Source of the DNA: a virus
Taxonomy: Duplodnaviria; Caudoviricetes
Direction: 5' to 3' (one strand)
Virus record (IMG/VR): IMGVR_UViG_3300013121_000027
Span: 167,460 to 231,459 of that record
DNA: 64,000 nucleotides
The notes beneath the pieces were generated by a model. It was not told the origin of the DNA. It searched no databases and saw nothing but the letters and a program-made list of their open reading frames with translations. Positions within the stretch are counted from its first letter, which is position 1. Every line of letters begins with the position of its first letter. The position numbers were made by a program, and so were the translations under genes. Shown piece after piece: positions 1 through 62,816 of this stretch.

Positions 1-3000
1 TTACAAATCTACCTTTTCTTGTTCCCCTAAAAAATGTTCGTATTTCGTCAAAACTTTCTATTCCGCGTAATTGAGCTATAGTTTTTGGTCGTTCAATCAA
101 TTCTCTTCGTGCTTCAGCAAGCATATCAATCATCGATCCGCCACCATCTAATCCCATATCTTCTAAGACGTTAAGGCTTATCTTGTTTTCTGCTGCTAAT
201 TTATCTATAGCTAAAATTTGTCTCTTTAATTTATGTGTTGGTATTAAGACGGTTTTATTCTTTTTGACAACCTTCTTAAAAAGCCCCATATCGTATAACT
301 TACGAACTGCTGCAGTATGAAGTTCATCTATACCACCGGCTAAAAATTCTTCTGCACTGTCAAACTGCTCCATACCATGAATGTTCCACCGTTTCGATAA
401 TTCTGCCTCAAATGATTTCATATCAGAAATAAATTTGGAAGCATTTACTTCCTCTTCAGTGGTAAATACTAACCCACTCAATGACTTAACACGCTCTTCA
501 AAAGCGGTTTCAATAACCGGTTTACCCATATCTGTAATATGCTCACCCAAAATAGCTTTACCTTTATAGAAGCCAGACATAGTACTTTCCTTGGTGACTT
601 CCGTAATAGATTTAATTTTCCTTTTGGCGCCAATTTGTTCATTATACGCTTGAATAAATCTTTGTTGAAACGGTTTTGACATTCTTGCCTGTGCCATAGC
701 GCTATCAAAGCCAATATTAAGTTGTTCTGCGCCTACTGGTAAACTCCTATTATATCTTTCGATTAAGGCTTGAGCTTTAGCAAATGCAGCGCCAAACTTT
801 CTTGGATTGTTGTGTAATATTTCCCTTTCCAAATCGTCAATAAGAAAAATATTACCTGTTTTTTTAATTTCGTCTACTGTGACTTCATACTCTACGAATT
901 GTTGTTTAGAGCTTTTTGCTATCTTAATAATTTGCGCTCTTAATTCTGGTGGAAGATTGCTATTATTTAATATATCATCCCAAGCATTGTCTAAAGCAAA
1001 CCTGGCATCAGTTAATTGTCCAAGAAGTCCATTAGCTCTGGCTTCTATTCCAAGTCTATCCTCTATAAGTTTATCTAATGTTTTGCCTCTGGTTAGTCGA
1101 TCTAATTCTGCTCTTTGTTCTCTGGATAAACTTGTAGCTTTAAATCTTGTATATAGGGCATCGTGCCACTCATCAGTTCCGGCAGAAATCTCAAAAGGAA
1201 AAGCTCCAGCATTGGCTCCAAGAGTCCTTTCCAGTTTTCTTTCTGAAACAATAGCGTTAGCAGCGGCGTTAGCTCGCTCCGTTGGAGTACCCCCACCAAA
1301 AGAACGACTTGTGTGGTACGAATGAGAAGCCGATGGCGTAGTATATCTATTCATAGATTCAACAGTTGTCCTCATACCTTTAGGACTTGTGTTTAGAGGC
1401 ATGGCGGGACTTCCATCAGCCAGAGGGGCAGCTGGAGAGAAAGTAGACGCTAAATCAATTTTAGCTATTCTCTTATTTCTCATCATTAAAAGGTGCAACT
1501 TGCTTCGGGTACTATCCAATTCAAAGGTTGCTGTTCTAATCTTTTGAGTCAATCTTTTATAAGTTTTTTCGTAATCTGGAAGCCTTGTATCTAATGCTTC
1601 TCGCTGTAAAAAAAGATTTTCTATTTCAGATGAAAGCTTTCGCTCTTCAACTGATAACTGTCTAACTTGATTATAATTTCCTCTTAAAATATCTTTTTTA
1701 CCAGATTTTGATATTTCAATATCGGGTTGATCAAAAATTCTTCTAAATGCTGAACTTTGATCTTCCGAAGTTAAATCAACATTATAATAACCAAACTCAC
1801 CCTTTTCGGTTGGATCTCTTATACCGAGAGCAAAAATGCGACGAGTTTTTTCATCATACTGCATGTGCCAAACGATACGATCGTCAAGGTCATGTCCACC
1901 GTGAAGCATACTGTGCGTTAAGAAAGATCCAGGATGTATGTGAGCAACGCCCTTCTCAAATCGAACCGTCCCAGGATCTACAAGATCTTTATTCGCCTCA
2001 GGAAAAACCGTTAAGTGAGTACCTACCGATCCCCTTATTGGGAAGTTCAGATTATAATTTGGAATTGACCTGCCACCTAATATTATTTGCTCATCATTTT
2101 TTACGGTTAAGAAATGATCTTGTACCGCATCTAATAATTGAGATGTTATTCGAGGGCTTTGATTTATATCTAAACCAGAATCCAAAGTTGTCTTTATCCT
2201 TTGGGCAAATGCTCTGGAACGCATTTTTTTTGCTATGACGGTTTCGTTATCCTCTGGTAAAATTTCCATTTCAGATAATTCATTAATGAGATTCCTTATT
2301 CCTGGAGTAATTTTTCCATTTTTGATATCGCTTATTAACTCATTGATAACGATTTTGGATTCGTTAACAAAGGAAAAATTATCCCCAAAAAGTCTACTGT
2401 GTGCGGATAAACTTAAAATGTTAGTTCTACCCTGTTTTGGTACTCCGTGACTTTCAAAAGATAAGAAGTAAGTTCCGCGTAATTCGCGTTTTTTATCTGC
2501 GCTGGAAACAAAAGCGTGTGTATTTGCAAATCTTTCCTTTGATAATCTAAAAATCTTCCTAAAAACTTCCTCATTCTCCTCCATAATAACACCGGCATCG
2601 CCTTTATAGTTAAAATCTTCGGACACCATTCGGATATTAACTCTTCCGGTAGAAAACATTGATTTTCTTTGTTTTGTAATTTCTTCTCTTATTGTTTTCG
2701 CTGTGGCAAGATGCTTTGCTCGTTCAGTCAATGGAAGTCTGGAGGCTTGTGCCTCTATCGAATTTGCTTCTTGTTCTAAATTAGAAAACATTTGTTCTAC
2801 AGTTCTTCTATTTAAAAGAACTTCACCATCGTACATTTTTTCAAATGCTGTCTTCCTACTTATTTTTTTTGTACCAGGTGCTGTACTCGCGATAAAAGAA
2901 TCAACCAATCTACCCGCGTCAGGGTTAAAAGCTTCAGCTACTCTTTTTGGATTAAAATGGTGCACGCTAATAGGCGTATCTGCCATAGAAAAAACCCGAT

Positions 3001-3595
3001 CAGATAAGAAAACGCTTAATCGCTTAGAGAGGCTATCGCTTTTCTCAAAAACGGTTGGGAAAGCATTATGATCAGATAGAACTTTCTGTACCTCCGCTAT
3101 TGTCAACCTTTTATTTCCAGAAGTAACATCTAAATGGACCAATTTTCCATTATTAAACCTTGGGACTCCATATATTTCTCCTGTAGGAGATTTTATTTCA
3201 CCTAAAACAGTTTCAGCAGTGTCTTTATTTAAATCCCAAGTTCTAACAGTTGGAGTATATCCTAATCTATCGAATAACATAGCCAATCTATTGGTGGCTG
3301 CTCCAACATATTCGTTTTCTAAAAGATTAGAAGAATACGTTCTTGTGCTTCTTAAAGGTCCTGATCGATAAAATACGTCGTGCCATTCTTCAAAGGACAT
3401 GGCTTTCTTACCAGTTGGACCAAAAGTAAATTTAATTTGATTACCATCTTGAACCAATTTGGTTTGCGGATAAAATTCTTCAAGAATTAAATCAACGGAG
3501 CGTTTAACATTTGAATCTGTAAAATATCTACGGATATTTGGGTGATAGATTAAATTCTTTAATCTTTCATCGTGTCTAAAATTAGGGATTGCCAT
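1..3595 (-). CDS. Single-chain RNA polymerase-like protein (RdRP/YonO-type double-psi beta-barrel), candidate virion RNAP; 3'-partial, >1198 aa
   Basis: Not in the ORF track. Hand translation from ATG 3595 (MAIPNFRHDERL...) is open to ~660 and presumably to the window edge. Motifs in order: SKRLSVF, MYDGEVLL, NIRMVSEDFNYKGDA, LHGGHDLDD (1880-1906), IRDPTEKGE, LLGQLTD, VTVDEIKKTG. These are collinear with the 60126-62816 protein. Confidence 0.8.
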   Translation of the reverse strand, partial: MAIPNFRHDERLKNLIYHPNIRRYFTDSNVKRSVDLILEEFYPQTKLVQDGNQIKFTFGPTGKKAMSFEEWHDVFYRSGPLRSTRTYSSNLLENEYVGAATNRLAMLFDRLGYTPTVRTWDLNKDTAETVLGEIKSPTGEIYGVPRFNNGKLVHLDVTSGNKRLTIAEVQKVLSDHNAFPTVFEKSDSLSKRLSVFLSDRVFSMADTPISVHHFNPKRVAEAFNPDAGRLVDSFIASTAPGTKKISRKTAFEKMYDGEVLLNRRTVEQMFSNLEQEANSIEAQASRLPLTERAKHLATAKTIREEITKQRKSMFSTGRVNIRMVSEDFNYKGDAGVIMEENEEVFRKIFRLSKERFANTHAFVSSADKKRELRGTYFLSFESHGVPKQGRTNILSLSAHSRLFGDNFSFVNESKIVINELISDIKNGKITPGIRNLINELSEMEILPEDNETVIAKKMRSRAFAQRIKTTLDSGLDINQSPRITSQLLDAVQDHFLTVKNDEQIILGGRSIPNYNLNFPIRGSVGTHLTVFPEANKDLVDPGTVRFEKGVAHIHPGSFLTHSMLHGGHDLDDRIVWHMQYDEKTRRIFALGIRDPTEKGEFGYYNVDLTSEDQSSAFRRIFDQPDIEISKSGKKDILRGNYNQVRQLSVEERKLSSEIENLFLQREALDTRLPDYEKTYKRLTQKIRTATFELDSTRSKLHLLMMRNKRIAKIDLASTFSPAAPLADGSPAMPLNTSPKGMRTTVESMNRYTTPSASHSYHTSRSFGGGTPTERANAAANAIVSERKLERTLGANAGAFPFEISAGTDEWHDALYTRFKATSLSREQRAELDRLTRGKTLDKLIEDRLGIEARANGLLGQLTDARFALDNAWDDILNNSNLPPELRAQIIKIAKSSKQQFVEYEVTVDEIKKTGNIFLIDDLEREILHNNPRKFGAAFAKAQALIERYNRSLPVGAEQLNIGFDSAMAQARMSKPFQQRFIQAYNEQIGAKRKIKSITEVTKESTMSGFYKGKAILGEHITDMGKPVIETAFEERVKSLSGLVFTTEEEVNASKFISDMKSFEAELSKRWNIHGMEQFDSAEEFLAGGIDELHTAAVRKLYDMGLFKKVVKKNKTVLIPTHKLKRQILAIDKLAAENKISLNVLEDMGLDGGGSMIDMLAEARRELIERPKTIAQLRGIESFDEIRTFFRGTRKGRFV

Positions 3596-6500
3596 TTAAA
3601 AACTCCCAGCATTCAACTGCAATATATTGCCAGAAAATGGAGTAGGTGACACAGAAACAGAACCACTTATACCATTATCAAATAAGAATCTTTTTATTTG
3701 AGCCCTTGTACTAAATCCGCCGCTTCTCTTATTGTAGTCTGGGTAAGCGGGATTTAATAAATTAGCTTCTTGTACTTGTTGCGGATAATAACCCATTTGC
3801 GCAAGATCCAATCCTAAACTCTGAGCCATTTTTATCTTTAGAGTATCAGTGCTTATTCCACTTGTCCATATATCAGAATCAGGTGGCGGAAGTTCGTGTT
3901 CGTTAAAATACTCTCTAAGATCTGGCTTTTCTTCTACTGGCATACCCCAAGCCGCCTCAAGCATTCTTCTTTCTAATCTTGGTGCAGTTGAAAGGATCTG
4001 CTGCTTTTCTTCTTCAGGGGCATACAGCATGGCTCTAAAATGTTCTCTTTTTCTCTTTGGAACAGCCATAGCTAATTTCTCTGGAGTAACTTTATCAAAA
4101 TCCATTCCATACATAGTAGTATTAGCCTGATTCTGGAAAAGTTGTGCAGATTGCAAATCGCCAAGTCTTTGAGCTTGAGAGGCTAATCTTGATGATCTTA
4201 CATACTCAAATATATCTGCATATTCTTCAATGCTTGCTTGTTGTTTTCTATACATTGGAATATATCTATCGCCAGTAATACCTTCGTAGGCATTGCCGAG
4301 AGCTGAGGAAGCCAATCCCATAGTACCACCAATAACGCTACCAATAGCGGCTGAACGAGAGCTTGCACCGAACAAAGCACCGAGAACACCGCCAGCTGAG
4401 GCGGCGGCGAGCGGATTTCTTTGTGATGCTTTGTGCATTGCTGGTTTAATGAAGCTTTGGATTGGATTTTCCCAAGATGGGAAAGTCGCACCGTAAACAT
4501 TATTCCTTTCCCAATCTTCCACTGCTGTTCTTGGCGTACCAAGTTTAGTGTTAAGATAGGTATCTCTGTGAGTTAGCCATTCCCAAGTCCTACCTATAGT
4601 AAAAGATGCTGGGTGTTTAAGCATTTGATCTGGAGAACTATACTTATATTCATATGGCGTAAACTCATTTTTAGTTCTCATAGCTTCAACTTGAGCTCTT
4701 GTTAATGAGACTTGAGCGCTTTCTGCAGTGGAAAGATTACCTCTTTTAATCAAAGTATCTATATATTTATATTCTTGCGACCAAGGAGCAATATCTCCTA
4801 GGATGTCATGAACATTTACTAATCCCAATTTGCCTGTTGCGTCAGGAAACATTTGATGAGTTCGAGCATAACCAATACCAGGCAATCTCATTTCCGCATC
4901 AGGAACGGCATTATATGGATCACCGCTCTTAATGTTAGCTAATGGGTAATCTACACCGGGTAGCCATGGGTATCTCTTTCCCATTGCGTTAGGTATATTA
5001 TTGATATAGTTCATACCTGCAGGTTCTTTTGGTACGAATCTACGAATGATTTCTGAGATTTCAAAGTTAGAATACTTACCCTCGATTGGTAGAGGTAGAT
5101 CTCCCAAGCCTCCAATCTGCATATTCCAAAAACTTCTATTAGATGAATACCCTCGTGATGCTGGTTCAAGAACAGATTTTTGCGGAGTTAAATCCTTATT
5201 TCCAATACCGAATCCTTCCCTAACAGATGCGGCAGCGAAACCATAAATACCAAAGAGTTCTTGAGATTGGAATCCAAGACGTCTTGCCGACATATTTATG
5301 GTTCCATAATCGAGGGTGCCACCAGCGGAAACCACTCTTGGGTTCATCTGTCCACGCTTTGTCGGTGTTGCATAAGCTAAATTAGAATACGATGTATTCA
5401 TACCAGAGGCGGTTTGTCTAACCAAAGAGGATGCGGTTCCTCGTGGATTCGCATAACCCATTCCGCCATAAAATGGCGCTATAGAAGATGTCGCGCCGGT
5501 ATATCCTGCATTTATATTAGAGAGTGATCTACCGGCGACATATCCACTATAAGAAGATTGTCCACCACCATAAGATTCCTGTCCTTGTCCTATACCTCCG
5601 CTATATGGGAAATAGGCACCTGATTCTCCAACTGGCTGATATTCACTCAGGATTTGCGACATTTCTCCGCCATGCATTCTACGACGCGGCTTTAATACTC
5701 TTCCTATAGTCGCATTAAGGGCTCCAGTTAATGGTCCCCATGGACCAGTAAAATAATCACCAGTTAATGGATAAGGACGCGAGTTATAATCTTCTCTTTC
5801 TCTTCTATATGGATCTAATGGTTTTAATGGCGAAAAATCATATCCGAAAAGAAGCCTCTCCATAGGAGTTTCTTTCATCTCCGGTGTAAATGATGCGCCA
5901 GATTTTAAACGCTTATACCATGACGGGCGGAAGTATTGTATTCTTCCACCGCGAAATGGCGTATTGCCAAGGATCCAGAATCGCCCTTTTCTGATTGGGA
6001 CTTCGCCATTTACTAATTCATTTCTCTTTTGTTCTGCGGTTTGCCCACCAGGTATTATTCCAGCCCAAGCCGTCTGCCCAGCGGCTACAACATCTCCAGC
6101 CTTACCAAGAAAATAGGGAGAGTAAACTCTATTACCATATTTATCTTTTTCGTTAACTGCACCGCCGATAGTCCTATCGACAGCTAATGCAGTTACGCCA
6201 GCTGCATAGATTGGTAAAACCCTCTTACCAACAAAACCTCTGGCAAAAAGATCTACTGGACTCTTATATCTTGTTTCGTCAACTCCTAATCCAAAGTTTT
6301 CAAAATATCTATTAAGACGACCAATCAAGTGGGTCATCGGAACTTGTGATCCCGACATCGCTTGTGGATCTCTCCAACTTAATCCAGCCGCACCCTTAAG
6401 AGCTCTAAGGGGATTTCTGTCAAAAGCCGTTCTAAACGTCGGCATAAAAACAGTCGAGGTGCCAGTTGGGTTATTTCTAAACGGCTTTTCATACGGTACT

Positions 6501-11349: not shown

Positions 11350-12306
11350 TTATGTAATTTGCGAAGCTCGGGGAGCACCGCCGCCAGATGAACTTGTAGA
11401 TATTGCATTATCTGATGGAACATACACTTTTTGCATTGACCCATCTTCTGGCTTTAATAATCTTTCATCTCTCGCCATAAAAGTATAAGTTTCTAAAAGA
11501 GGAGTTCCTTCCGTATCATACTCTGTTTGCTTAGAAATCAATTCCACATTCTCCAACAGGATCTGCATGTCCATTTCTTCAAATGGTAATTTGACCAGTC
11601 TTTCATTAAGATCAGCCATCATCGTATCATATCCGTATTTATTCCTAATCTCTGATGCACTATAGGAAGGGTTATCGTGAGTGACAGATGTTTGCTGAAG
11701 CCCATATCTAATAACGAAATTAAATGGTGGATGAATACTGAATAAATGCTGTTGCGTTGCTTCAAGATTTGTATCGTAATGTCTACGCCAATAAGTATTA
11801 ATTAAAGTCTCATCCGTATCTAATCCTCTTACCTGATGAAGATTATTCACTTGTTTTGAGGCGACAGTTTTTGCTCTTATTTGAGCTGCCTCAGCTATTT
11901 TTGAAGTTAAAAGATATGGCGCTGTGGAGATAAGACTAAAGGCGCCAGTTACAATTCTTGTACCTCTTAACATGGCATCGTAAGTATATGACCAAAACCC
12001 ATAAAGAGGTTGCTTCTGTTGTTGGATATTGTAAGCAAAAGAATAAATTGGAAGAGGATCTCGTCCGTCGAGTCCATCTATCGTGATTTGAATATCTTGT
12101 CCAGAAAAGAAGTAATCAAAGTATGGGTTATTGAAAGATGTATATTTTTCAAACGCATAAGCCCATTTACTGAATAGATCCGCTTCCGCCTCGTTCCACC
12201 AATTTATAGAAGATTGAGGAACTATAGATCCAGAAAGGGATTGATGTTCGTTACGTTGACTTATAGATTTATCTTCAAATTGGGTTATTCGACCTGGACC
12301 ACTCAT
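11350..12306 (-). CDS. Tail tube-like paralog (tube initiator/baseplate hub candidate)
   Basis: FSGQDI, KQPLYG, RGTRIVTG and HPPF motifs shared with the other two tube-like proteins. Confidence 0.6.
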   Translation of the reverse strand: MSGPGRITQFEDKSISQRNEHQSLSGSIVPQSSINWWNEAEADLFSKWAYAFEKYTSFNNPYFDYFFSGQDIQITIDGLDGRDPLPIYSFAYNIQQQKQPLYGFWSYTYDAMLRGTRIVTGAFSLISTAPYLLTSKIAEAAQIRAKTVASKQVNNLHQVRGLDTDETLINTYWRRHYDTNLEATQQHLFSIHPPFNFVIRYGLQQTSVTHDNPSYSASEIRNKYGYDTMMADLNERLVKLPFEEMDMQILLENVELISKQTEYDTEGTPLLETYTFMARDERLLKPEDGSMQKVYVPSDNAISTSSSGGGAPRASQIT

Positions 12307-12318
12307 TAATTATCTCCT

Positions 12319-12960
12319 TCAAAAACTGGAATTACTTGTGCTATTCGAAAAAGAAATTGTATTTATCGTAGATTGCACACCAGAACTTATAACTTGTGGA
12401 TTGTACGATGTTAATGGTTGAATACCACGAGCCATATACGTATAAACCTGTTCGGTAACGAGGTCATCTACTGACATCGTTCCACCTTCATCAACGATGG
12501 TGACGCCTAAAATTCTCATAACTGAAAATCTTCCATATTCATTAGAAAACGTTAATACAACATCAAATGGCGGTAACATATCAGCAAGTGGAAACATTGG
12601 ATTTGTTGCCAAACCAAATTGTCCAGATGCTCCATGAACTAATTCTTTATACTGTGCAAGACGATAAAAGGCGTATGAATTAAAGACAGTAAAGACTAAA
12701 CTCCCAGCTATTGTTCTTGGACCTTTAATAAATCCTCTCGGATTAACTTTTCCAAGTATGCGAACTGGCTTATTTTCTCTGTGTATAGAATATGATATTG
12801 TTTGAAGTTCACCAAGATTAAGTGGTTTTTCTTCATTCGGTAAAATAATTTGAGCAGTTATATCTACACCAGAAAATGAATCATAAACTATGGGAGCATC
12901 GTCATATTGTTGTCTATTCTTATAGACGCCATAAGTAAACGGTTGAAGAATTTCTCCCAT
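12319..12960 (-). CDS. Tail tube-like paralog
   Basis: FSGVDI, RENKPVRILG, KGPRTIAGSLVF, LPPFDV and GVTIVDEG match the spliced tube protein. Confidence 0.65.
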   Translation of the reverse strand: MGEILQPFTYGVYKNRQQYDDAPIVYDSFSGVDITAQIILPNEEKPLNLGELQTISYSIHRENKPVRILGKVNPRGFIKGPRTIAGSLVFTVFNSYAFYRLAQYKELVHGASGQFGLATNPMFPLADMLPPFDVVLTFSNEYGRFSVMRILGVTIVDEGGTMSVDDLVTEQVYTYMARGIQPLTSYNPQVISSGVQSTINTISFSNSTSNSSF

Positions 12961-12983
12961 AATAGAAAACCTTGTCTTTTAAA

Positions 12984-13019
12984 AGGTGAGGGACATACCT
13001 GATAGTACATCCCCCACCC
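12984..13019 (-). terminator. Probable intrinsic terminator after the tail tube gene
   Basis: Imperfect GGTGGGGGA/TCCCTCACC stem followed by TTTT on the minus strand. Confidence 0.45.
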
Positions 13020-13033
13020 ATTAAATAAAATAC

Positions 13034-14761
13034 TTAGCTACCAAGACCGAAGCCTGCAACTACTGTAGCATCAACAGTTGTATCAACTGTATCAAAGCCA
13101 CCGCGAGCAGTTGGGATCATTGGTCCTATTTCTCTTGCTACGAAAGTCATCGTCTCTTCCATTACCAAGTCATCCATTGAGGCTCCAGAACCTTCATTCA
13201 AAAGTTCCACACCATAGATTGACTTAACGGCTGATTGACCATATTCGTTAGAGAAGGTGATTGTAATATCGAACGGAGGTACCTGATCAGCATAATATGG
13301 AAGTGCGCTTGTTATACCAAAAGCTGTGCTTGATGCATCTGGTAAAGCGGCGACAATTCCACCTGCTGAGTTACTACCCATGTTCGGAATAACGTTCCAA
13401 GCTCTTGTCCAAATCTTGAAACTGTCATTTGCGGAGTTTGCCGCAATGAGGTTATAAAGTGCTGGTCTATCGAAAGTCATGAAAATAAGACTTCCGGCAA
13501 TTCCTCTTTTACCTCTGGAAAAGGAACGTGGATTGGGGCTCAATATTGAGTAATATTGGACTATCTCTTAGATAAAATTTTCCGGAATATCTGCACTAAG
13601 GAGTGCAGCTGCGAATGAACCAAAAAGTCTTTGTATTGGCTTATGAGAAAAAGAATTTTCCCAGTATAAATACTTAACTATTGGAAACCCATCTTCTGGG
13701 GATCCATTTATCTCCCAAAAATTTCTTAAAGAAGAAACTATTTTTAATTGAGCTTCTTCTATTGATATTTTGGTTGATACGGTTCTTTTTGCTTCTTTTT
13801 TTTCTATTGGATTTGAATGTAGTTTATATCCTTGTGGTATTTTATATTTAAGAGTTTTATGTATAAAAGGTTCCACTATTAAAAGGAATTTCCAAGCTTC
13901 ATTTCTTGATAGGTAAGTATAATAATATTGTTTGCCTTTTTTATTTCGTAAGGCTATTTCCATATTTATATTATATTTACTTTTTAATTGACTTTGTAAA
14001 ACTTTGTGAGATTGCAAGTCAAATCCATAAGAGCTTAATTCTATTTTTCCACGGAAAACATCATAACTTCCATCATCCATATACCAAACTGCCATATTAA
14101 ATGGATTTAGTTCTATATCTAATGGAACTTGTTTATGTGAATCTATATACCAATAATCTCTCATTGGTTTAAAAATTTTATTTCCATAAACATGGAATCT
14201 ATATTCTCTGGATGCAACCTCTCTTTCTCCAAAAGATGATTTTCTATCTCTAAAAGAGATATTACAAGAAAATCCTTCCTCTTTAAAGAATGATTGTTTC
14301 CATTCTAAATATTCCATTTGCGATTTTCCATGAGATTCAGAATAATAATAGTTCATACTATTCTGTCTCTTATCAAAAGAAGCAATAATCGCTCCATCTC
14401 CCAAAAGGGAGCCAGTAATAAGATTACTGAGATTAATATTATCTTTAATCATTTTAAAATAACCTCTTTGGGCTAAATTCTGACGCCTCTTACAAGTAAA
14501 AGTTTCGTCAAGTCTCTACAGCTGCTGATTATATCAGCGTGCCTCGGGATTTTACCCCCGATTTCAGATTAATTGGGCAGTTCATCCACCCATTGTAAAC
14601 ACAGGAGCTTTTTCGCGTGAAACGCTCCATGTAATTCCTGCAAGGGTTCCAACCACAGTTCCATTGAATGTAGCTACTATATCTGCGCCAGAGAACGTAG
14701 TATACGTTCTGGTATATTGTTCAATAGTGCTCGTATTCCTTGAACCTAAAAGGTCAGCCAT
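13034..14761 (-). CDS. Major tail tube protein, spliced: exon1 14761-14588, exon2 13540-13034 (226 aa)
   Basis: Joining ...REKAPVFTMG to SPNPRSFSRGKRGIAGSLIF... restores a frame that aligns without gaps to paralog 12319-12960 (RENKPVRILGKVNPRGFIKGPRTIAGSLVF). GAGGAG RBS 9 nt before ATG 14761. Follows the sheath gene. Confidence 0.85.
13541..14587 (-). mobile_element. Group I self-splicing intron (1047 nt) in the tail tube gene
   Basis: The 5' exon ends in U, paired to G in P1 (UGGGU|GG-AUGAA-CUGCCCA). R element GUAGAGACU and S element AAGAGAUAGUCC give P7 GACU/AGUC. P9 is AAUAUU-ACUC-AAUAUU, followed by a terminal G at 13541. Confidence 0.92.
13568..14452 (-). CDS. Intron-encoded LAGLIDADG homing endonuclease
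   Basis: Two motifs, LITGSLLGDG and AVWYMDDGS. C-terminal RLFGSFAAAL resembles the homing-endonuclease-associated repeat. Very AT-rich, lies in the P8 loop, and its stop codon overlaps the S element. Confidence 0.9.
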   Translation of the reverse strand: MIKDNINLSNLITGSLLGDGAIIASFDKRQNSMNYYYSESHGKSQMEYLEWKQSFFKEEGFSCNISFRDRKSSFGEREVASREYRFHVYGNKIFKPMRDYWYIDSHKQVPLDIELNPFNMAVWYMDDGSYDVFRGKIELSSYGFDLQSHKVLQSQLKSKYNINMEIALRNKKGKQYYYTYLSRNEAWKFLLIVEPFIHKTLKYKIPQGYKLHSNPIEKKEAKRTVSTKISIEEAQLKIVSSLRNFWEINGSPEDGFPIVKYLYWENSFSHKPIQRLFGSFAAALLSADIPENFI

Positions 14762-14879
14762 ATGTATCATCTCCTCGCTACATTACAAATGTAGCATCTG
14801 TAGGGATATTGTATTCTTTTCAGTTTTTCGAAAAGATCTTTTTATGCGGCTCGCAAATTTATTTGGAACATCTATCGCA

Positions 14880-16112
14880 TTAGAAGTTTACTGACACCTG
14901 AACAACTACTTCACGCAGTTCAAAAGCTGGGACGATTGCGAGATCGATATAAGCCTTATTGTCTGCTGGTGAGTATTGGACTCTGAAGTCTGATTGGTTA
15001 ATCGCACCAAGCTTAGTCATTGATTGAAGCGAAGAAGAGATTTGTGTCTGGAACGCGTTTTGCATCGTGATAGACATACCTTCGCCAACATAGTTCTGAG
15101 CGATGTTCTTAATTAGCTTAACTGCATCGAATACGATTCGAATTGTTGAAAGTCTAATAAAGTCAGATGTCGTAGCGGCGAACGTAGTACCATCAACCCA
15201 CTTGGGGATTCTGCTGAAGTCGAGCTGTCCAACAACAACACCCTTACCAGAAAGCGTCTCGGCTTGAGCACGAGTCACATTATAGCGCAGTTGGTCAATA
15301 TTATACATCGGCTTATTGGTTGTTGCGCTCCAAGATGAGAGACGAGAAATAAGCGCAGCATACAAGCAGGCACCATTGCTATACCCCCAATCTGTCGGTG
15401 CAGAGATGGGATGCACTTCTGTAGCGATAACAGAAATGTAATCACCAGAAGTAAAAGAGTCCTTATTGATAAGTGAAGAAAATGCTATACCATCAGCTAA
15501 TTGTGTTGGAGTTGGGTTTTGAGGTCCAGCAATTGGATTTACGCCTATGACTCCAACTACTGGATATGAATTGTATGTGATTTCCGAGCACTTATCGGCA
15601 ACTTGCTTTGCCCAGCTATAGGAAGCATTAGTCGAGTTGTCCGCATAGAAGAAATCGCTTGAACTACCACCAGGAGTTGCAACTGGAGTTGCATAGTCAT
15701 CCCAGTCTGTCGTTACACTACCGCGACCCCAAGGCACTACTATATCTGCGCGAACAGCTTCAACCGAGGCGAAAGCCTCATCGAAAATATTCAATGTTGG
15801 ATAAGTAGCACTGGCAATGGTACCAGCGCCATGATTAAATGTAGTGTTAGAAGGTAATGGGATAAAAGCAACTCTCGGCGCTCCACCAGTGCTTAATTCG
15901 TAGAAGGCGCGGTGGATTTGAGAATTTTCACCAAACTTTGTAATAACATCTTGCTCAGAAGTAGCAAGGTAGGGCACAAAATCTGGAGCAGCCGCCGTAG
16001 CATCATTGCTTCTTTTAGCAATAACAGCAATAAGAGGACCACCTGGCAGGTCGGTTCTTGCTTGGTTGTAGAAACGATCTAGAATTGTAGTTTTGACACC
16101 TGGGAGAGCCAT
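14880..16112 (-). CDS. Tail sheath protein
   Basis: LPGV N-terminus; C-terminal RLSTIRI...YVGE...DLAIVPAFELREVVVQV; immediately upstream of the tube gene. Confidence 0.8.
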   Translation of the reverse strand: MALPGVKTTILDRFYNQARTDLPGGPLIAVIAKRSNDATAAAPDFVPYLATSEQDVITKFGENSQIHRAFYELSTGGAPRVAFIPLPSNTTFNHGAGTIASATYPTLNIFDEAFASVEAVRADIVVPWGRGSVTTDWDDYATPVATPGGSSSDFFYADNSTNASYSWAKQVADKCSEITYNSYPVVGVIGVNPIAGPQNPTPTQLADGIAFSSLINKDSFTSGDYISVIATEVHPISAPTDWGYSNGACLYAALISRLSSWSATTNKPMYNIDQLRYNVTRAQAETLSGKGVVVGQLDFSRIPKWVDGTTFAATTSDFIRLSTIRIVFDAVKLIKNIAQNYVGEGMSITMQNAFQTQISSSLQSMTKLGAINQSDFRVQYSPADNKAYIDLAIVPAFELREVVVQVSVNF

Positions 16113-16161
16113 TTGGAAACCTCCATAAACAATATGTAGTAGTGCGGCGTTGACCTATGGA

Positions 16162-16168
16162 TATAGTA
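16162..16168 (-). promoter_or_regulatory. TACTATA late-promoter-like motif (sheath operon)
   Basis: The same heptamer occurs 30-70 nt upstream of several morphogenesis genes. Confidence 0.55.
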
Positions 16169-16230
16169 CGAGAAAAACGCCTATATACAACATTTAAAAG
16201 GTGTTTCTATATAATCAAAATTGATTTTTA

Positions 16231-16938
16231 TTAGCTATTAGTATTATTATCCAGTAGTGAAGTATAAATAGGATAAGTGATTGGTGTAGCGTCAGGCTCA
16301 TAGGATGGTGTTGCGTCGTCCGCAACAATTGCTTGAACTTGTAGGAAGATACTATCAAGCTTATCTATACTGGTAGTAAGAACTTTTTGAATGCCAACCA
16401 TGTAGGCGATCGAGCGAGAGGAAAGATCATCTCCATATCGTGTTTCGTGAGAATCTGACATTCTACGTACGTATGAAATAGATTCAAGACCCAACATTTG
16501 TAACATGGGCTTGATCTGAATCATGAAATCCTCATACTCTTCTATAATTTCTTCTGCAACTCTGGGTACTTTATGAATTGCGGTAAACTTAACAATAATA
16601 TAAAAACTTTCTATAAAGATTGCAAGCTTTTTAGTTGGATCAGTTGGATCATCAACCGTCTCATACGGTTTTGGTTTAGGAGAATTATTTTTGGGCTTTT
16701 TATCTTCTAAAGTGTAAATAATATAACCAAGTTCTGGATTGAATATCTTTTGTTCGCCAAAGGGACCAAATTTAATTTCAGGATGCCCTTCACTCCATAA
16801 TTTATTTACCACATCTATAAATTGTAAATAAGATAAATTTCCTTTAGATTTTAATGGTGGAAGAACAGAACCATATGGCTGTATATATTCTGGAGATGGA
16901 TATGGAGTTTGCTTTTGCGTTGAAAAATCAAATTTCAT
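16231..16938 (-). CDS. Tail completion/terminator-like virion protein
   Basis: Position between the neck and sheath genes; no diagnostic motif. Confidence 0.4.
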   Translation of the reverse strand: MKFDFSTQKQTPYPSPEYIQPYGSVLPPLKSKGNLSYLQFIDVVNKLWSEGHPEIKFGPFGEQKIFNPELGYIIYTLEDKKPKNNSPKPKPYETVDDPTDPTKKLAIFIESFYIIVKFTAIHKVPRVAEEIIEEYEDFMIQIKPMLQMLGLESISYVRRMSDSHETRYGDDLSSRSIAYMVGIQKVLTTSIDKLDSIFLQVQAIVADDATPSYEPDATPITYPIYTSLLDNNTNS

Positions 16939-18119
16939 GACCCTGGACCTACCTCAACTTGAAATGTAATCTGTCTTAATCCAAAAACTGGAGTTAAACT
17001 TATTATGACAGATATTTTTTGGCTTTGATTTGTTTCTACTATATTAAGAGTAAAGTCTTTGATAACCGAAGCGTTTTTCAAATAGAACATATAAGAGGAA
17101 ACGATTTCCTTAAATTTAGCTATATAGATAGAGCCAATAAATGCATATCCGTATTCTCTAATTTGATTGATAACATTGGCAATAATCCTCATTTGACCAA
17201 GTGACCAAAAATCACTTCCATCTTGTCCCAATGTATTATCGGTTAGAAGAATGACTTGATTCGCGTAGCCTCTTTTTCCTCTTGTTGTTCTGGTTGCGCA
17301 ATTTATTTTTGCAGTAGCTAATTCTTCTATCTTGGAAGAAGATAAATCATTGCCAACAAGAGTAGAGACTAATGGTAATTGTATTCCGGTAACACTATGA
17401 TCTAAAGGTGCCGTTGCCATAACTGCAGCAGTTTTAACTGCTAATGATGAAATATAACTGAGTGTCATTTGCGGATTCGTTATAAGACCTTCTCCCATAA
17501 CTAAGAAAACAAATTTACCAGCTTCACCTAATGAACTTATTCTTTCGTCTGTAGTCATATCAATTATTGATTGATCAGAAAACGCACTTATCCTTGTTCC
17601 TAAAACGCCGAAACAAACAGCTCCAGTAATTGTAAAAAAACTGCCGCAAAAATCTACCAATTGTGTTAGAAAATCTACGTCTCCCGCATCATAAAAAACA
17701 GCCTCAACTGGAACTATTATCTCTGGAAAATCATATCCACTTAAAGCGCTATAAGCTACAGTTAGTCTATCGTAATATTTCTCATAGAAAGTTTTGCTAC
17801 CCCATTCTGTACGAGGGGTTAACCTATCGGCAATAGTAGGTTCGTATTCACTCATAGGTGCTACCGGATAAAGCCAAATATCTTTACATCCACAATTATA
17901 TACTTCCAGAAATGCGCGCAACAGGGGTGATTGCGAATCTTTACCCAAAAAAGCAACTGCGTTCTTTGCATTTGTCACCCTATATGGCTCATACATTATA
18001 TCAGCATCGGCATGACCCATTAATAAAATTGTATCAGTTAGCCCAGATCCAAGTATTTGGTATGCGGAAGATTCCAGCATTGTGCCAGATAATGATGGGA
18101 CAGATAAAAGATTTGCCAT
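16935..18119 (-). CDS. Second tail sheath-like protein
   Basis: C-terminus (SDFWSLGQMRI...FIG...ISLTPVFGLRQITFQV) parallels the sheath at 14880-16112. Confidence 0.65.
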   Translation of the reverse strand: MANLLSVPSLSGTMLESSAYQILGSGLTDTILLMGHADADIMYEPYRVTNAKNAVAFLGKDSQSPLLRAFLEVYNCGCKDIWLYPVAPMSEYEPTIADRLTPRTEWGSKTFYEKYYDRLTVAYSALSGYDFPEIIVPVEAVFYDAGDVDFLTQLVDFCGSFFTITGAVCFGVLGTRISAFSDQSIIDMTTDERISSLGEAGKFVFLVMGEGLITNPQMTLSYISSLAVKTAAVMATAPLDHSVTGIQLPLVSTLVGNDLSSSKIEELATAKINCATRTTRGKRGYANQVILLTDNTLGQDGSDFWSLGQMRIIANVINQIREYGYAFIGSIYIAKFKEIVSSYMFYLKNASVIKDFTLNIVETNQSQKISVIISLTPVFGLRQITFQVEVGPGS

Positions 18120-60125: not shown

Positions 60126-62816
60126 ATGTCAACGCAAGTACAACTCCGTAATGGTCGGTGGCTTGAAGCTACCGCACTGCCTGGAGATTTGTTTGAGGCA
60201 ATTCTCGCTTCAGGCAAGAGCAAGATCTATCCCATGAGCGAGCTTCGTGCTGTGCTCACGGATGGACAGGAAGAGGTCATCCCCAACAAGAAGGAGGAGA
60301 AGATGACCAACTACATCAACCACTACCTGCACAGGTTGGCGTTCACGGATGATGATGGTGAGCAGTTCGCTGCCATCGTCCGTGCTCTGACCAGCAATGT
60401 GCCTGATGCCACCAAGGCTGACTACCTGGCGTCAGTCGAGAGCAAGACTGTGGTGAACAACGTCCTCGCCCTCAATTCGGGCAACTGGATGTTCCACCTG
60501 CTCAAGGCTCGTCTGGAGCAGTGCCACGTGAACTTCAAGACCTGGGTGATCAAGCTCAGGACTCAGGATGACGTGTATGGCTTGGACAACATGTCCGCTG
60601 CCAAGCGTCAGGAACTCATCGATGGTTCTACGTTCTGCTACGCCAACGCGGATTACGCCTTCTTCTTCAAGGTGGAAGGTGTTCCCGAGTTCGGTCTGCA
60701 CCTGATGGGACTGAACATCACCCATGCCAAGAAGAGTGCCAAGCGCCTGCAGGAGCTGTTCCGTCAGGTGGAGGCATTTCTGCATCTGGAGGGTGAGGAT
60801 CAGAAGAGTCTGACGTGGGATTTCAATCCGCGTCTGGACCTGGCTGGTGATGAGGTCAAGCGCTATGACGGCAAGACTTACATCCGTCAGTCCTTCGCCC
60901 TGCGCATGGCTGAGAACATCAGCGATCTCATCCGCCGGGCGAGCGTCATCAGGGCGATCCGGTCGCGCAAGTTGGTTCACATCACCATCCGCATCCTGAC
61001 TCCTCAAGGTCTGCTCAAGGGCGATGCTGTCATCGTTCCTGACAACCAGATCAGTGCGGACATCTCCACTGTGAGCGAAAATGTCAAGGGTGAGCTGTTC
61101 ACCAATGACTTCACTTTCGCCTGCATGTGGGAGCATGCCATGGTGCACAACGCGGTGTGGGACGACCAGAGTGCGATCAACTTTGGTTATGCCCTCTCCG
61201 AGCAGGCTCAGATCAGCGACATCATCCGTCTGGTGGAGAATCTTCGCAATGCCATCCAGACAGGTGAGCTCCCTGAGTGGCTGCTCCTCGGTGAAGATGG
61301 ACACGGTGATGATGGGCTGCCCAGCGTTGAGAAGCTGAGCGACACCATCAACAAGAGCTGGGTCCGCTTCCAGGCGTTCGGGTTGGACATCAAGGCAGCA
61401 CAGAATCTGCTGTACATGGCGCTCAACGGCGTCATCCTGCGCATGATCCGCGCTGGTATGACAAAGGAAGGGTTCTACCGCAAGATGTGGATCCCCATGA
61501 CCAATGCGTGTTTGCTCACGATCAACACATGGGAATCGGCTACCCGCGTTGGAGGGTTCAACTTCCATGGTCGCAACAAGAACATCGCGTTCTACGATCC
61601 TCGTTGCGGCTTCGTGATCAGCAGCCAGCGCTTCATCGAGACCTACCATCTCCATGGTGGTTGGGATCTGGATGACAGTGTGAAGGTCATCTTGGTGAAG
61701 GTGTTCTGCAGTGATGCGGAAATCCTGACCCAGCATGTCCACAAGACTGTCCCTGGTGAGATCGAGTACCCCACCAGTGCCGACGATGCCAAGTTGATGG
61801 TGCTGTTGGTCCGTTCTCCCAACGGTCCGGGCGAATGGAGCATCGAGGAGTGCGATATCACCTCCCTGCCCATCCCGCAGGACTTCCGTCATGACGACAT
61901 CACGGTTATCGACATCGCCAAGATGCCGTTGCCTCAGGATGTCATGCTGGCGCAGGTTGGTCCGATCGCAGGATTCACCTCCAACATGAAGTACACTGGT
62001 CTTGAAATGACCAGGGCTGAAGGTGAACTCATGGTCAATGCTCAGATGTCCAACCCCGGTGTTGGTGAGTACTGCAACGGGATGATGTGGTGGGCATTGA
62101 TCAAGCCTGGTTCCTTCCCGCCCATCATGAATGCCAAGATGGAGGAAGTGGTGGACACCAGTCAGCAGGAGCATGATGCAGTGAAGTTCGCTGCCATCAA
62201 GGCTGAGACTGATCTCATCATCAAGCAGGCTCTTGCCACCAATCTGCCCGTCGATGCAGCGTTTGCATCCACCAGGATGTCCTTCACGAACATGATGAAG
62301 GTCCGACTGGTCAAGGGTCGTTTCTACCGTGTCCAGCACGAGTACAAGAAGGCGATCGAGACCATGCGGACTGAACTCCGTGACCACACGCTGCAGATGC
62401 GTGCTGCGGATCCGACGGTCCAGGCTGTCAAGCACATGCGGTTCGGTGACGAGTTGTTCCAGTGGGCTGAGCACTTCTATGTGTCCAACTCGCAGGCAAT
62501 GACCAGCACCGATCGTGCGTACGAAGTCAGCCCCAAGGACCATCCGTTCCACAAGATGGAGATGGCTCGCCTGCACAAGGAAGCAATGGAAGAGATCGTG
62601 GCTTCCATGGTCAAGGAACTGGATGATTTCGGTGACGAAACCAACAACCATGTCCTGGCGCTGTGGAAGTACATCAACCACTCCACCCGTCGCTTCCCCA
62701 TGGGTGTCTCGGATCGCATCGTCTTCCACCCCAACAAGACGGGTGAGCGGTCGGTCATGGACGTCCTCATCGAGGCGCTGCTGGCTGTCAACCTGGCGGT
62801 CAAGCCCAGTAAGTGA
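60126..62816 (+). CDS. Single-chain RNA polymerase-like protein (RdRP/YonO-type), candidate non-virion RNAP (896 aa)
   Basis: AGGAGG RBS at ATG 60126. Motifs in order: AKRLQELF, RYDGKTYI, TIRILTPQGLLKGDA, LHGGWDLDD (61650-61676), VRSPNGPGE, GVGEYCN, EEVVD. Confidence 0.8.
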   Translation: MSTQVQLRNGRWLEATALPGDLFEAILASGKSKIYPMSELRAVLTDGQEEVIPNKKEEKMTNYINHYLHRLAFTDDDGEQFAAIVRALTSNVPDATKADYLASVESKTVVNNVLALNSGNWMFHLLKARLEQCHVNFKTWVIKLRTQDDVYGLDNMSAAKRQELIDGSTFCYANADYAFFFKVEGVPEFGLHLMGLNITHAKKSAKRLQELFRQVEAFLHLEGEDQKSLTWDFNPRLDLAGDEVKRYDGKTYIRQSFALRMAENISDLIRRASVIRAIRSRKLVHITIRILTPQGLLKGDAVIVPDNQISADISTVSENVKGELFTNDFTFACMWEHAMVHNAVWDDQSAINFGYALSEQAQISDIIRLVENLRNAIQTGELPEWLLLGEDGHGDDGLPSVEKLSDTINKSWVRFQAFGLDIKAAQNLLYMALNGVILRMIRAGMTKEGFYRKMWIPMTNACLLTINTWESATRVGGFNFHGRNKNIAFYDPRCGFVISSQRFIETYHLHGGWDLDDSVKVILVKVFCSDAEILTQHVHKTVPGEIEYPTSADDAKLMVLLVRSPNGPGEWSIEECDITSLPIPQDFRHDDITVIDIAKMPLPQDVMLAQVGPIAGFTSNMKYTGLEMTRAEGELMVNAQMSNPGVGEYCNGMMWWALIKPGSFPPIMNAKMEEVVDTSQQEHDAVKFAAIKAETDLIIKQALATNLPVDAAFASTRMSFTNMMKVRLVKGRFYRVQHEYKKAIETMRTELRDHTLQMRAADPTVQAVKHMRFGDELFQWAEHFYVSNSQAMTSTDRAYEVSPKDHPFHKMEMARLHKEAMEEIVASMVKELDDFGDETNNHVLALWKYINHSTRRFPMGVSDRIVFHPNKTGERSVMDVLIEALLAVNLAVKPSK

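Follow-up and report, generated by a model that had tools for sequence, protein, structure and literature searches.

A candidate mobile group I intron with a LAGLIDADG gene and a reduced core in a predicted tail-tube gene of a phage

Introduction

How can a tail-tube protein be made from a gene that is split in two by a long insert with an early in-frame stop codon? This question is raised by a 64,000-nucleotide (nt) stretch of viral DNA (Duplodnaviria; Caudoviricetes), hereafter the window, which covers positions 167,460 to 231,459 of the IMG/VR record IMGVR_UViG_3300013121_000027 and is part of a 231,459-base-pair (bp) record, with terminal repeats, of a giant phage from wastewater. A preliminary description made from the sequence had placed a group I intron with a LAGLIDADG endonuclease gene in a tail-tube gene at 13541..14587, and the computational analysis described here finds both the coordinates and the anatomy correct. 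In our reading, to which we give a probability of about 0.87, a mobile group I intron occupies the first of three tail-tube paralogs and is spliced from the late mRNA, restoring the tube protein. We infer splicing, its guanosine-initiated two-step route and the activity of the nuclease from the sequence. Coordinates refer to the window, all intron and exon features lie on its minus strand, and an intron position is converted into its window coordinate by subtraction from 14588.

Results and Discussion

Split Gene and Predicted Splice Junction

The splitting of the tail-tube gene by the insert is confirmed. The insert starts directly after a U, its last base is a G at 13541, and exon 2 follows from 13540. 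Reading on from exon 1 into the insert gives GGA TGA, an in-frame stop after two codons. Joining the exons yields ...FTMG|SPNPRSFSRGKRG..., restoring the frame with the junction TMG|SPNPR that had been proposed earlier. The sequence PIYTMGSPNPRS is found without a gap in 80/80 of the closest IMG/VR relatives (56-69% identity over exon 2), which read TMGSPNPRS across the same junction. All ten of the more distant loci are also contiguous at this point, bringing the uninterrupted relatives to 90/90. Upon alignment to the uninterrupted genes of Bacillus phages KLEB27-3 and WH1, the exons abut with no residue gained or lost. The region of the open reading frame (ORF) within the insert has a G+C content of 23-31%, as compared with 43-45% for the exons.

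Contigs from four other studies cover both junctions with 0 differences, and the stretch 14448-14656, which includes the P4-P6 part of the intron, shows no difference in contigs from three runs of other studies. Because these contigs are identical, neither the insert nor the absence of the helices discussed below is an assembly artefact. The identical sequence in contigs of four further studies also indicates that the phage circulates with the intron in place. The intron-less joint of the same phage was not found in the DNA contigs of four runs.

Introns at the Same Site in Other Phages

A search of IMG/VR with the single nuclease protein of the insert gave no match, and an 11-member alignment was needed. 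With the alignment of nuclease homologs, three full-length relatives with DNA were retrieved, on contigs L014, L015 and L094. L094 and a further contig, L016/L182, are near-identical to L015, and the 5' part of L016/L182 is identical to that of L015. The nucleases of L014 and L015/L094 share 33-34% identity with the window nuclease over residues 11-294. Their inserts lie in homologous tube genes, directly after ATGGGT, and end before AGC (L014) or AGT (L015, L094). In the three introns of the window, L014 and L015, stop codons are met after 2, 1 and 7 codons. Rfam assigns 29.8 bits to the L015 intron (2597-2866, expectation value (E) 2e-4) and 20 bits to that of L014. At this one codon boundary, three distant lineages have an insert and 90/90 other relatives have none. 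Such sporadic occupancy of a single boundary is the pattern expected of a homing element.

The tube ortholog of L015 (1363-3745) harbors three group I introns. The first two, an upstream one and the LAGLIDADG intron, are divided by a micro-exon of ~13 nt, and the third, downstream intron is ORF-less and scores 92 bits with Rfam.

Intron RNA Anatomy

The coordinates of the exons, the ORF and the individual RNA elements are collected in Table 1. Helices P3, P4, P6, P7 and P8 occur in canonical order with the P3/P7 pseudoknot, every listed pair is standard, and the order equals that of the family alignment discussed below. The splice-site pair in P1 is a U(-1)·G10 wobble, and the P1 loop holds the in-frame UGA. 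This U-G pair, P7, P9 and the terminal G had all been named in the preliminary description and are all present in the pair check. The minimum-energy fold of the 5' part of the intron gives P1, P4, P6 and P7.1 with z = -2.35, and 5/200 shuffled sequences fold as well. The core signature formed by both P4 strands and J6/7-P7 has a single occurrence in the window (14511-14561, minus strand) and none in 100 shuffles, with a pattern that was partly derived from the window sequence.

Table 1. Coordinates of the split tail-tube gene, its predicted intron and the elements within it
Feature	Window coordinates	Strand	Intron positions	Remarks
Exon 1, tail-tube paralog 1	14588..14761	minus		58 codons, end ...ACA ATG GGT; PHROG 9206 positions 12-60
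Group I intron (predicted)	13541..14587	minus		1047 nt, of which 162 nt outside the ORF
P1	14574..14592	minus	-5..-1 and 1-2 / 8-14	exon UGGGU (-5..-1) and intron GG (1-2) with guide CUGCCCA (8-14), 7 bp
P10	14579-14580 (guide bases)	minus	C8, U9	two pairs possible with exon-2 A, G
P3, 5' strand	14563..14567	minus	21-25	CUGAA; covaries with L014 and L015
P4 hairpin	14544..14561	minus	27-32/39-44	UCGGGG/UCCCGA, loop GUAAAA
P6/P6a hairpin	14520..14543	minus	45-68	
J6/7 and P7, 5' strand	14511..14519	minus	69-71 and 72-77	GUA and GAGACU, bulged A73
P7.1/P7.1a hairpin	14481..14510	minus	78-107	between P7 and the P3 3' strand
P3, 3' strand	14473..14477	minus	111-115	UUUAG
P8, 5' strand	14456..14465	minus	123-132	holds the GAGG ribosome-binding site of the nuclease gene
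LAGLIDADG (I-SceI family) homing endonuclease ORF	13568..14452	minus	136-1020	294 amino acids; in P8 loop
P8, 3' strand	13570..13581	minus	1007-1018	overlaps the ORF end
J8/7 and P7, 3' strand	13558..13569	minus	1019-1024 and 1025-1030	AAGAGA and UAGUCC
P9 and terminal G	13541..13557	minus	1031-1046 and 1047	six A-U pairs, loop ACUC
Exon 2, tail-tube paralog 1	13034..13540	minus		start AGC CCC AAT CCA CGT; PHROG 9206 positions 62-164

Comparison of the three same-site introns adds support from compensatory changes. For the window, L014 and L015, we compared the pairs manually and checked the strands with a script, because a MAFFT alignment of four 5' parts misplaced the window copy owing to its deletions. 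The intron-side pairs of P1 read GG/CU, AG/CU and AA/UU in the window, L014 and L015, respectively. In P3, pair 2 is either U-A or C-G and pair 5 either A-U or G-C; pair 5 of P4 appears as G-C or U-A, and P8 offers a C-G or U-A exchange. In each of the three introns, the nuclease gene has its GAGG ribosome-binding site within the 5' strand of P8.

P10 displays a compensatory change as well, with exon AG and guide CU on the one hand and AGU and AUU on the other; L015 alters both sides. The first serine codon of exon 2 (13538-13540) is AGC or AGT in all intron-bearing alleles, and at the same codon (position 2601 of L312-L391) the empty alleles have TCN in 79/80 cases and AGC in 1/80. This codon bias fits P10 pairing, in which AG would pair with the guide bases beside P1. 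Co-conversion of the flanking exon would explain it equally well.

A Family of Phage Introns

The core pattern UCGGNG..UNCCGAGG..GUAGAGACU..GAUAUAGUCC is found at no fewer than 127 places in IMG/VR, and the following statistics are based on 87 matches in 80 fetched loci (L185-L264). The two P4 positions left free in the pattern form Watson-Crick pairs in 85/87 matches (75 U:A, 8 G:C, 2 C:G); the two non-pairing matches look like chance hits. Forty non-redundant, ORF-less members align well, and RNAalifold returns P3, P4, P5 and P6 for this alignment. Five of the six P3 pairs have undergone double changes in 9-18 sequences each and the sixth in 2. The window shares with the family P3, P4, P6, J6/7-P7 and J8/7-P7', both in sequence and in order. 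The spacing from P7 to the 3' strand of P3 differs, being ~4 nt in the 40 ORF-less members, whereas P7.1-type hairpins are inserted there in the window, L014, L015 and L174. At its gathering score, the Rfam group I model RF00028 recognizes five of the 20 family loci tested (L208, L210, L212, L218, L242) and misses 15/20.

R1, a covariance model trained on these 40 members, scores L015 at 45.7 bits and L014 at 37.4 bits. On the window it places one hit at 14470-14574 (minus strand) with 19.6 bits and E 0.022, the sole window hit at E up to 10, the pattern behind the training set having been chosen to include the window. The same hit is the best in the whole 231-kb genome (E 0.079). The runner-up, at 60457-60541 of the genome, lies inside an intact 204-amino-acid ORF and was dismissed as a chance match. 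These results show that the window bears the core that stays invariant in a real and structured RNA family.

Other members of the family display further arrangements. Several contigs have two or three copies, e.g., L189, L206, L208/L209 and L232. An exact 16-mer scan of IMG/VR returned 11 loci, four of which are introns (L174, L179, L181, L182); the other seven were set aside as chance matches in coding DNA. In L174 (1374-1888), R1 has two neighboring hits, of 35.6 and 34.3 bits, suggestive of tandem introns from one subfamily with P7.1/P7.2 hairpins, one of them with a long P5 insert. Near a family intron in L263, the region 2261-3657 has a transfer-messenger RNA gene (97 bits) beside a run of at least seven tRNA genes.

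LAGLIDADG Nuclease

The ORF of the intron matches the Pfam family LAGLIDADG_2 (PF03161) with 93.2 bits against a cut-off of 25, and both motifs have their acidic residues, in line with the earlier assignment as a LAGLIDADG endonuclease. A profile of the nuclease and 10 relatives matches I-SceI over residues 11-206 (E 4e-24). The motifs LLGDG (D19) and YMDDG (D126, D127) are invariant in 11/11 aligned sequences, and we take these three aspartates to be the catalytic residues. The C-terminal part of ~90 residues is conserved and faintly resembles PF18780, the homing-endonuclease-associated repeat (E 0.05). The closest relatives of the nuclease (P0002 to P0005), with 45-68% identity, are metagenomic proteins. 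Its PHROG family is phrog_11023, and it is the sole LAGLIDADG_2 gene in the phage genome.

The closest solved relative of the nuclease is I-SceI, the endonuclease of the yeast mitochondrial 21S rRNA intron and, like the phage protein, a two-motif monomer; the additional ~90 C-terminal residues set the phage protein apart.

LAGLIDADG genes are also known from inteins and from a small number of group II introns, as indicated by the reference list of PMC3706429, which brings up the idea that the insert is a different element, i.e., an intein, a group II intron or a free-standing nuclease cassette lacking a ribozyme. We regard this as next to negligible. The ORF does not share the reading frame of the exons, and stop codons come before it, so the insert is no intein. 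A group II intron finds no Rfam group II match in the window or the region. The ORF flanks moreover carry the group I core common to the family that Rfam calls group I in 5/20 loci.

Reduced Core of the Window Intron

Several observations weigh against the assignment as a group I intron that is spliced. With RF00028, there is no hit in the window at the gathering score nor in the region at E up to 10. A genome scan gives a best score on the intron of 10.5 bits (threshold 50, E 0.6) over the 3' 200 nt, so the Infernal check with group I models proposed in the preliminary description fails with this model. The R1 score of the window is modest, at 19.6 bits, and it is no independent test, since the pattern that gathered the training set was built to match the window. 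P8 and P9 are A-U rich, and their pairings are weak evidence taken alone. P3 has only 5 pairs in the window, and J3/4 measures 1 nt instead of the 4 nt of the family. P5, a part of the P4-P6 domain, is absent: only the six bases GUAAAA separate the P4 strands, a distance of at least 14 nt in 87/87 family matches, and a stem of at least 3 bp occupies this place in 86/87. Finally, there is no RNA run among the listed sequencing runs that contain the phage, and no spliced junction was seen.

The failure of Rfam is weak evidence against a group I intron, because the same model finds only 5/20 family loci; the core of the window copy is in addition split by an ORF of 885 nt. The absence of P5 is mirrored in the R1 alignment by 5 bases against 24 model positions. 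P2 is missing as well, with six unpaired bases in its stead, whereas a P2 hairpin is present in L014, L015 and the family at large. The combined loss of P2 and P5 goes beyond the first reading of this intron. P9 consists of six A-U pairs closed by ACUC without a GNRA loop, as opposed to 7 bp and a GAAA loop in L014 and L015. We scanned IMG/VR for other copies with a short gap between the P4 strands and obtained 3 hits, 0/3 of which are introns; they were rejected based on unpaired P4 positions and coding-looking DNA.

The L9 tetraloop of small group I introns from bacteria and phages docks on P5. If this general picture holds here, the window copy lacks both partners of the contact. Given no P2, no P5 and a short P9 without a GNRA loop, unaided self-splicing is less certain than the identity of the intron.

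These features hint at an intron that is unable to fold or splice alone and depends on its own LAGLIDADG product as maturase or on a host RNA chaperone. We consider such dependence possible, yet on balance doubtful. It would agree with the loss of P5 in the window copy only, none of the short-gap hits being an intron, and with the replacement of the GAAA-capped 7-bp P9 of L014 and L015 by one ending in ACUC. However, the A-rich GUAAAA loop could replace J4/5, and the nuclease has kept both acidic motif residues, as expected of an active endonuclease. In a more specific proposal, a naturally minimised ribozyme, lacking P2 and P5 and having 162 nt outside the ORF and an A-rich P4 hexaloop, would be spliced in vivo, the I-SceI-type protein with its C-terminal domain doubling as maturase. 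This proposal is speculative, and we think it unlikely.

Tail-Tube Host Gene

The split gene is preceded by a sheath gene, identified by its PHROG match, and followed by two further tube paralogs. The order of the paralogs is the same in KLEB27-3 and WH1, where chaperone and tape-measure genes come next. More broadly, the window has a tail module at 11350-18119 with three tube-like paralogs and, by synteny with KLEB27-3, two sheath-like genes around a small gene; the PHROG comparison of the sheath genes covered 14880-16112.

Pfam has no family for any of the 28 tube-protein members, and PHROG 9206, which the tube protein matches, carries the label 'major head protein'. For these reasons, we modelled the uninterrupted ortholog L312, which is 65% identical over exon 2, in place of the spliced window protein, using 100 family sequences. 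The L312 model has a predicted local distance difference test score (pLDDT) of 82; a first model based on 28 close sequences reached a pLDDT of 53 and was discarded. Foldseek returns 58 matches for the L312 model at E up to 0.001, with the tube chains of phage 812 on top (E 3e-8) and tubes of PVC, AFP and diffocin, lambda gpV, Hcp and T4 among the others. The predicted fold of the host gene product is that of a tail tube (Hcp / gpV / gp19 fold), and the model of this ortholog bears out the host gene named in the preliminary description. In light of the predicted fold, the label of PHROG 9206 looks wrong.

In RefSeq, the homolog from 0305phi8-36 has the same 'major head protein' name, and genes matching PHROG 9206 are located at 12319-12960 and 13034-14761 of the window.

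The other two tube paralogs are continuous ORFs, intron-free as noted earlier, and the second paralog differs from the split gene at ~20/36 site positions. In the L312 model, the intron site maps between G57 and S58, in what is predicted to be the loop at the tip of a long beta-hairpin.

A split in a surface loop of the predicted model, together with the existence of two more paralogs, could be taken to mean that the insert is never spliced. The tube gene would then be dead, with the paralogs covering for it, or two polypeptides would assemble across the beta-hairpin tip, the second started from a TTG that overlaps the end of the intron and has the frame of exon 2. We find either version highly improbable. 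The TTG has no ribosome-binding site before it and lies inside the P9 hairpin, and in L015 none of the four codons that precede exon 2 is an in-frame start. The two exons are themselves intact, and their junction restores the exact family sequence. All three paralogs are kept in all relatives examined. Lastly, the insert holds the full set of group I core elements.

The mobile intron reading, in contrast, would account for the locus in a sequence of plausible steps. The late tube mRNA would be transcribed, with ribosomes halted by the UGA of the P1 loop. The intron would then fold, and two transesterifications would remove it at AUGGGU|AGCCCC. Translation of the ligated mRNA would give a tube protein of 226 residues, while unspliced RNA would be translated into the nuclease. 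The nuclease presumably cuts intron-less tube alleles in co-infection, which would drive copying of the intron into them. The unchanged circulation of the phage in several studies speaks for a functional tube gene and, by extension, for splicing.

Relation to Known Systems

Introns in phage structural genes have been reported previously. According to passages of PMC11878797, orf142 of phage Twort is a tail tube protein gene with three group I introns. The window resembles it in having a group I intron in the tail-tube gene of a contractile-tailed phage and differs in having a single intron, with a LAGLIDADG gene; L015 resembles it in the number of introns, three in the tube gene. The tube family of the window showed no sequence similarity to the annotated Twort ORF178 fragment (hhalign probability 0.4), and its fold matches the tube chains of phage 812. 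The same passages describe a DNA-polymerase group I intron of Nitunavirus (Bastillevirinae) carrying a phrog_11023 LAGLIDADG gene. It is similar to the window in that a phrog_11023 nuclease sits inside a phage group I intron, but the host gene is a DNA polymerase and not a structural gene (PMC11878797).

For mycobacteriophages, excerpts of PMC3706429 report introns in capsid and tail genes verified by reverse transcription PCR (RT-PCR), one of them with a LAGLIDADG ORF. The capsid gene of LittleE (Cluster J) parallels the window most directly, as a structural gene with a group I-like intron and a putative LAGLIDADG protein, spliced according to RT-PCR. It differs in having its ORF on the opposite strand, in its capsid host gene and in belonging to an unrelated siphovirus (PMC3706429). 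LAGLIDADG enzymes are not the usual phage type according to parts of PMC3984707, which also record a bacterial LAGLIDADG maturase. The rarity attributed to this arrangement in the preliminary description was overrated in view of the orf142 introns of Twort (PMC11878797) and the LAGLIDADG-bearing mycobacteriophage capsid intron (PMC3706429). The kind is already known, phage structural-gene introns including a LAGLIDADG-bearing one being in print, and the reduced core is the variant.

Conclusions

For specialists, the finding as such is ordinary, and its value lies in three further points. In at least three distant phage lineages, an intron occupies the homing site at the tip of a predicted hairpin, and one relative has three introns in the gene. 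Intron counts for phage metagenomes are probably too low, since Rfam finds only 5/20 loci of a very large family, and split structural genes are probably mis-annotated. A copy without P5 and P2 resides in a phage whose circulation is unchanged across several wastewater data sets, making the window intron an inexpensive natural system for testing minimal group I cores and protein-assisted splicing. If the maturase reading is true, the locus would represent co-dependence of a phage intron and its protein, and would offer a natural test of the need for the P4-P6 domain in the group I core.

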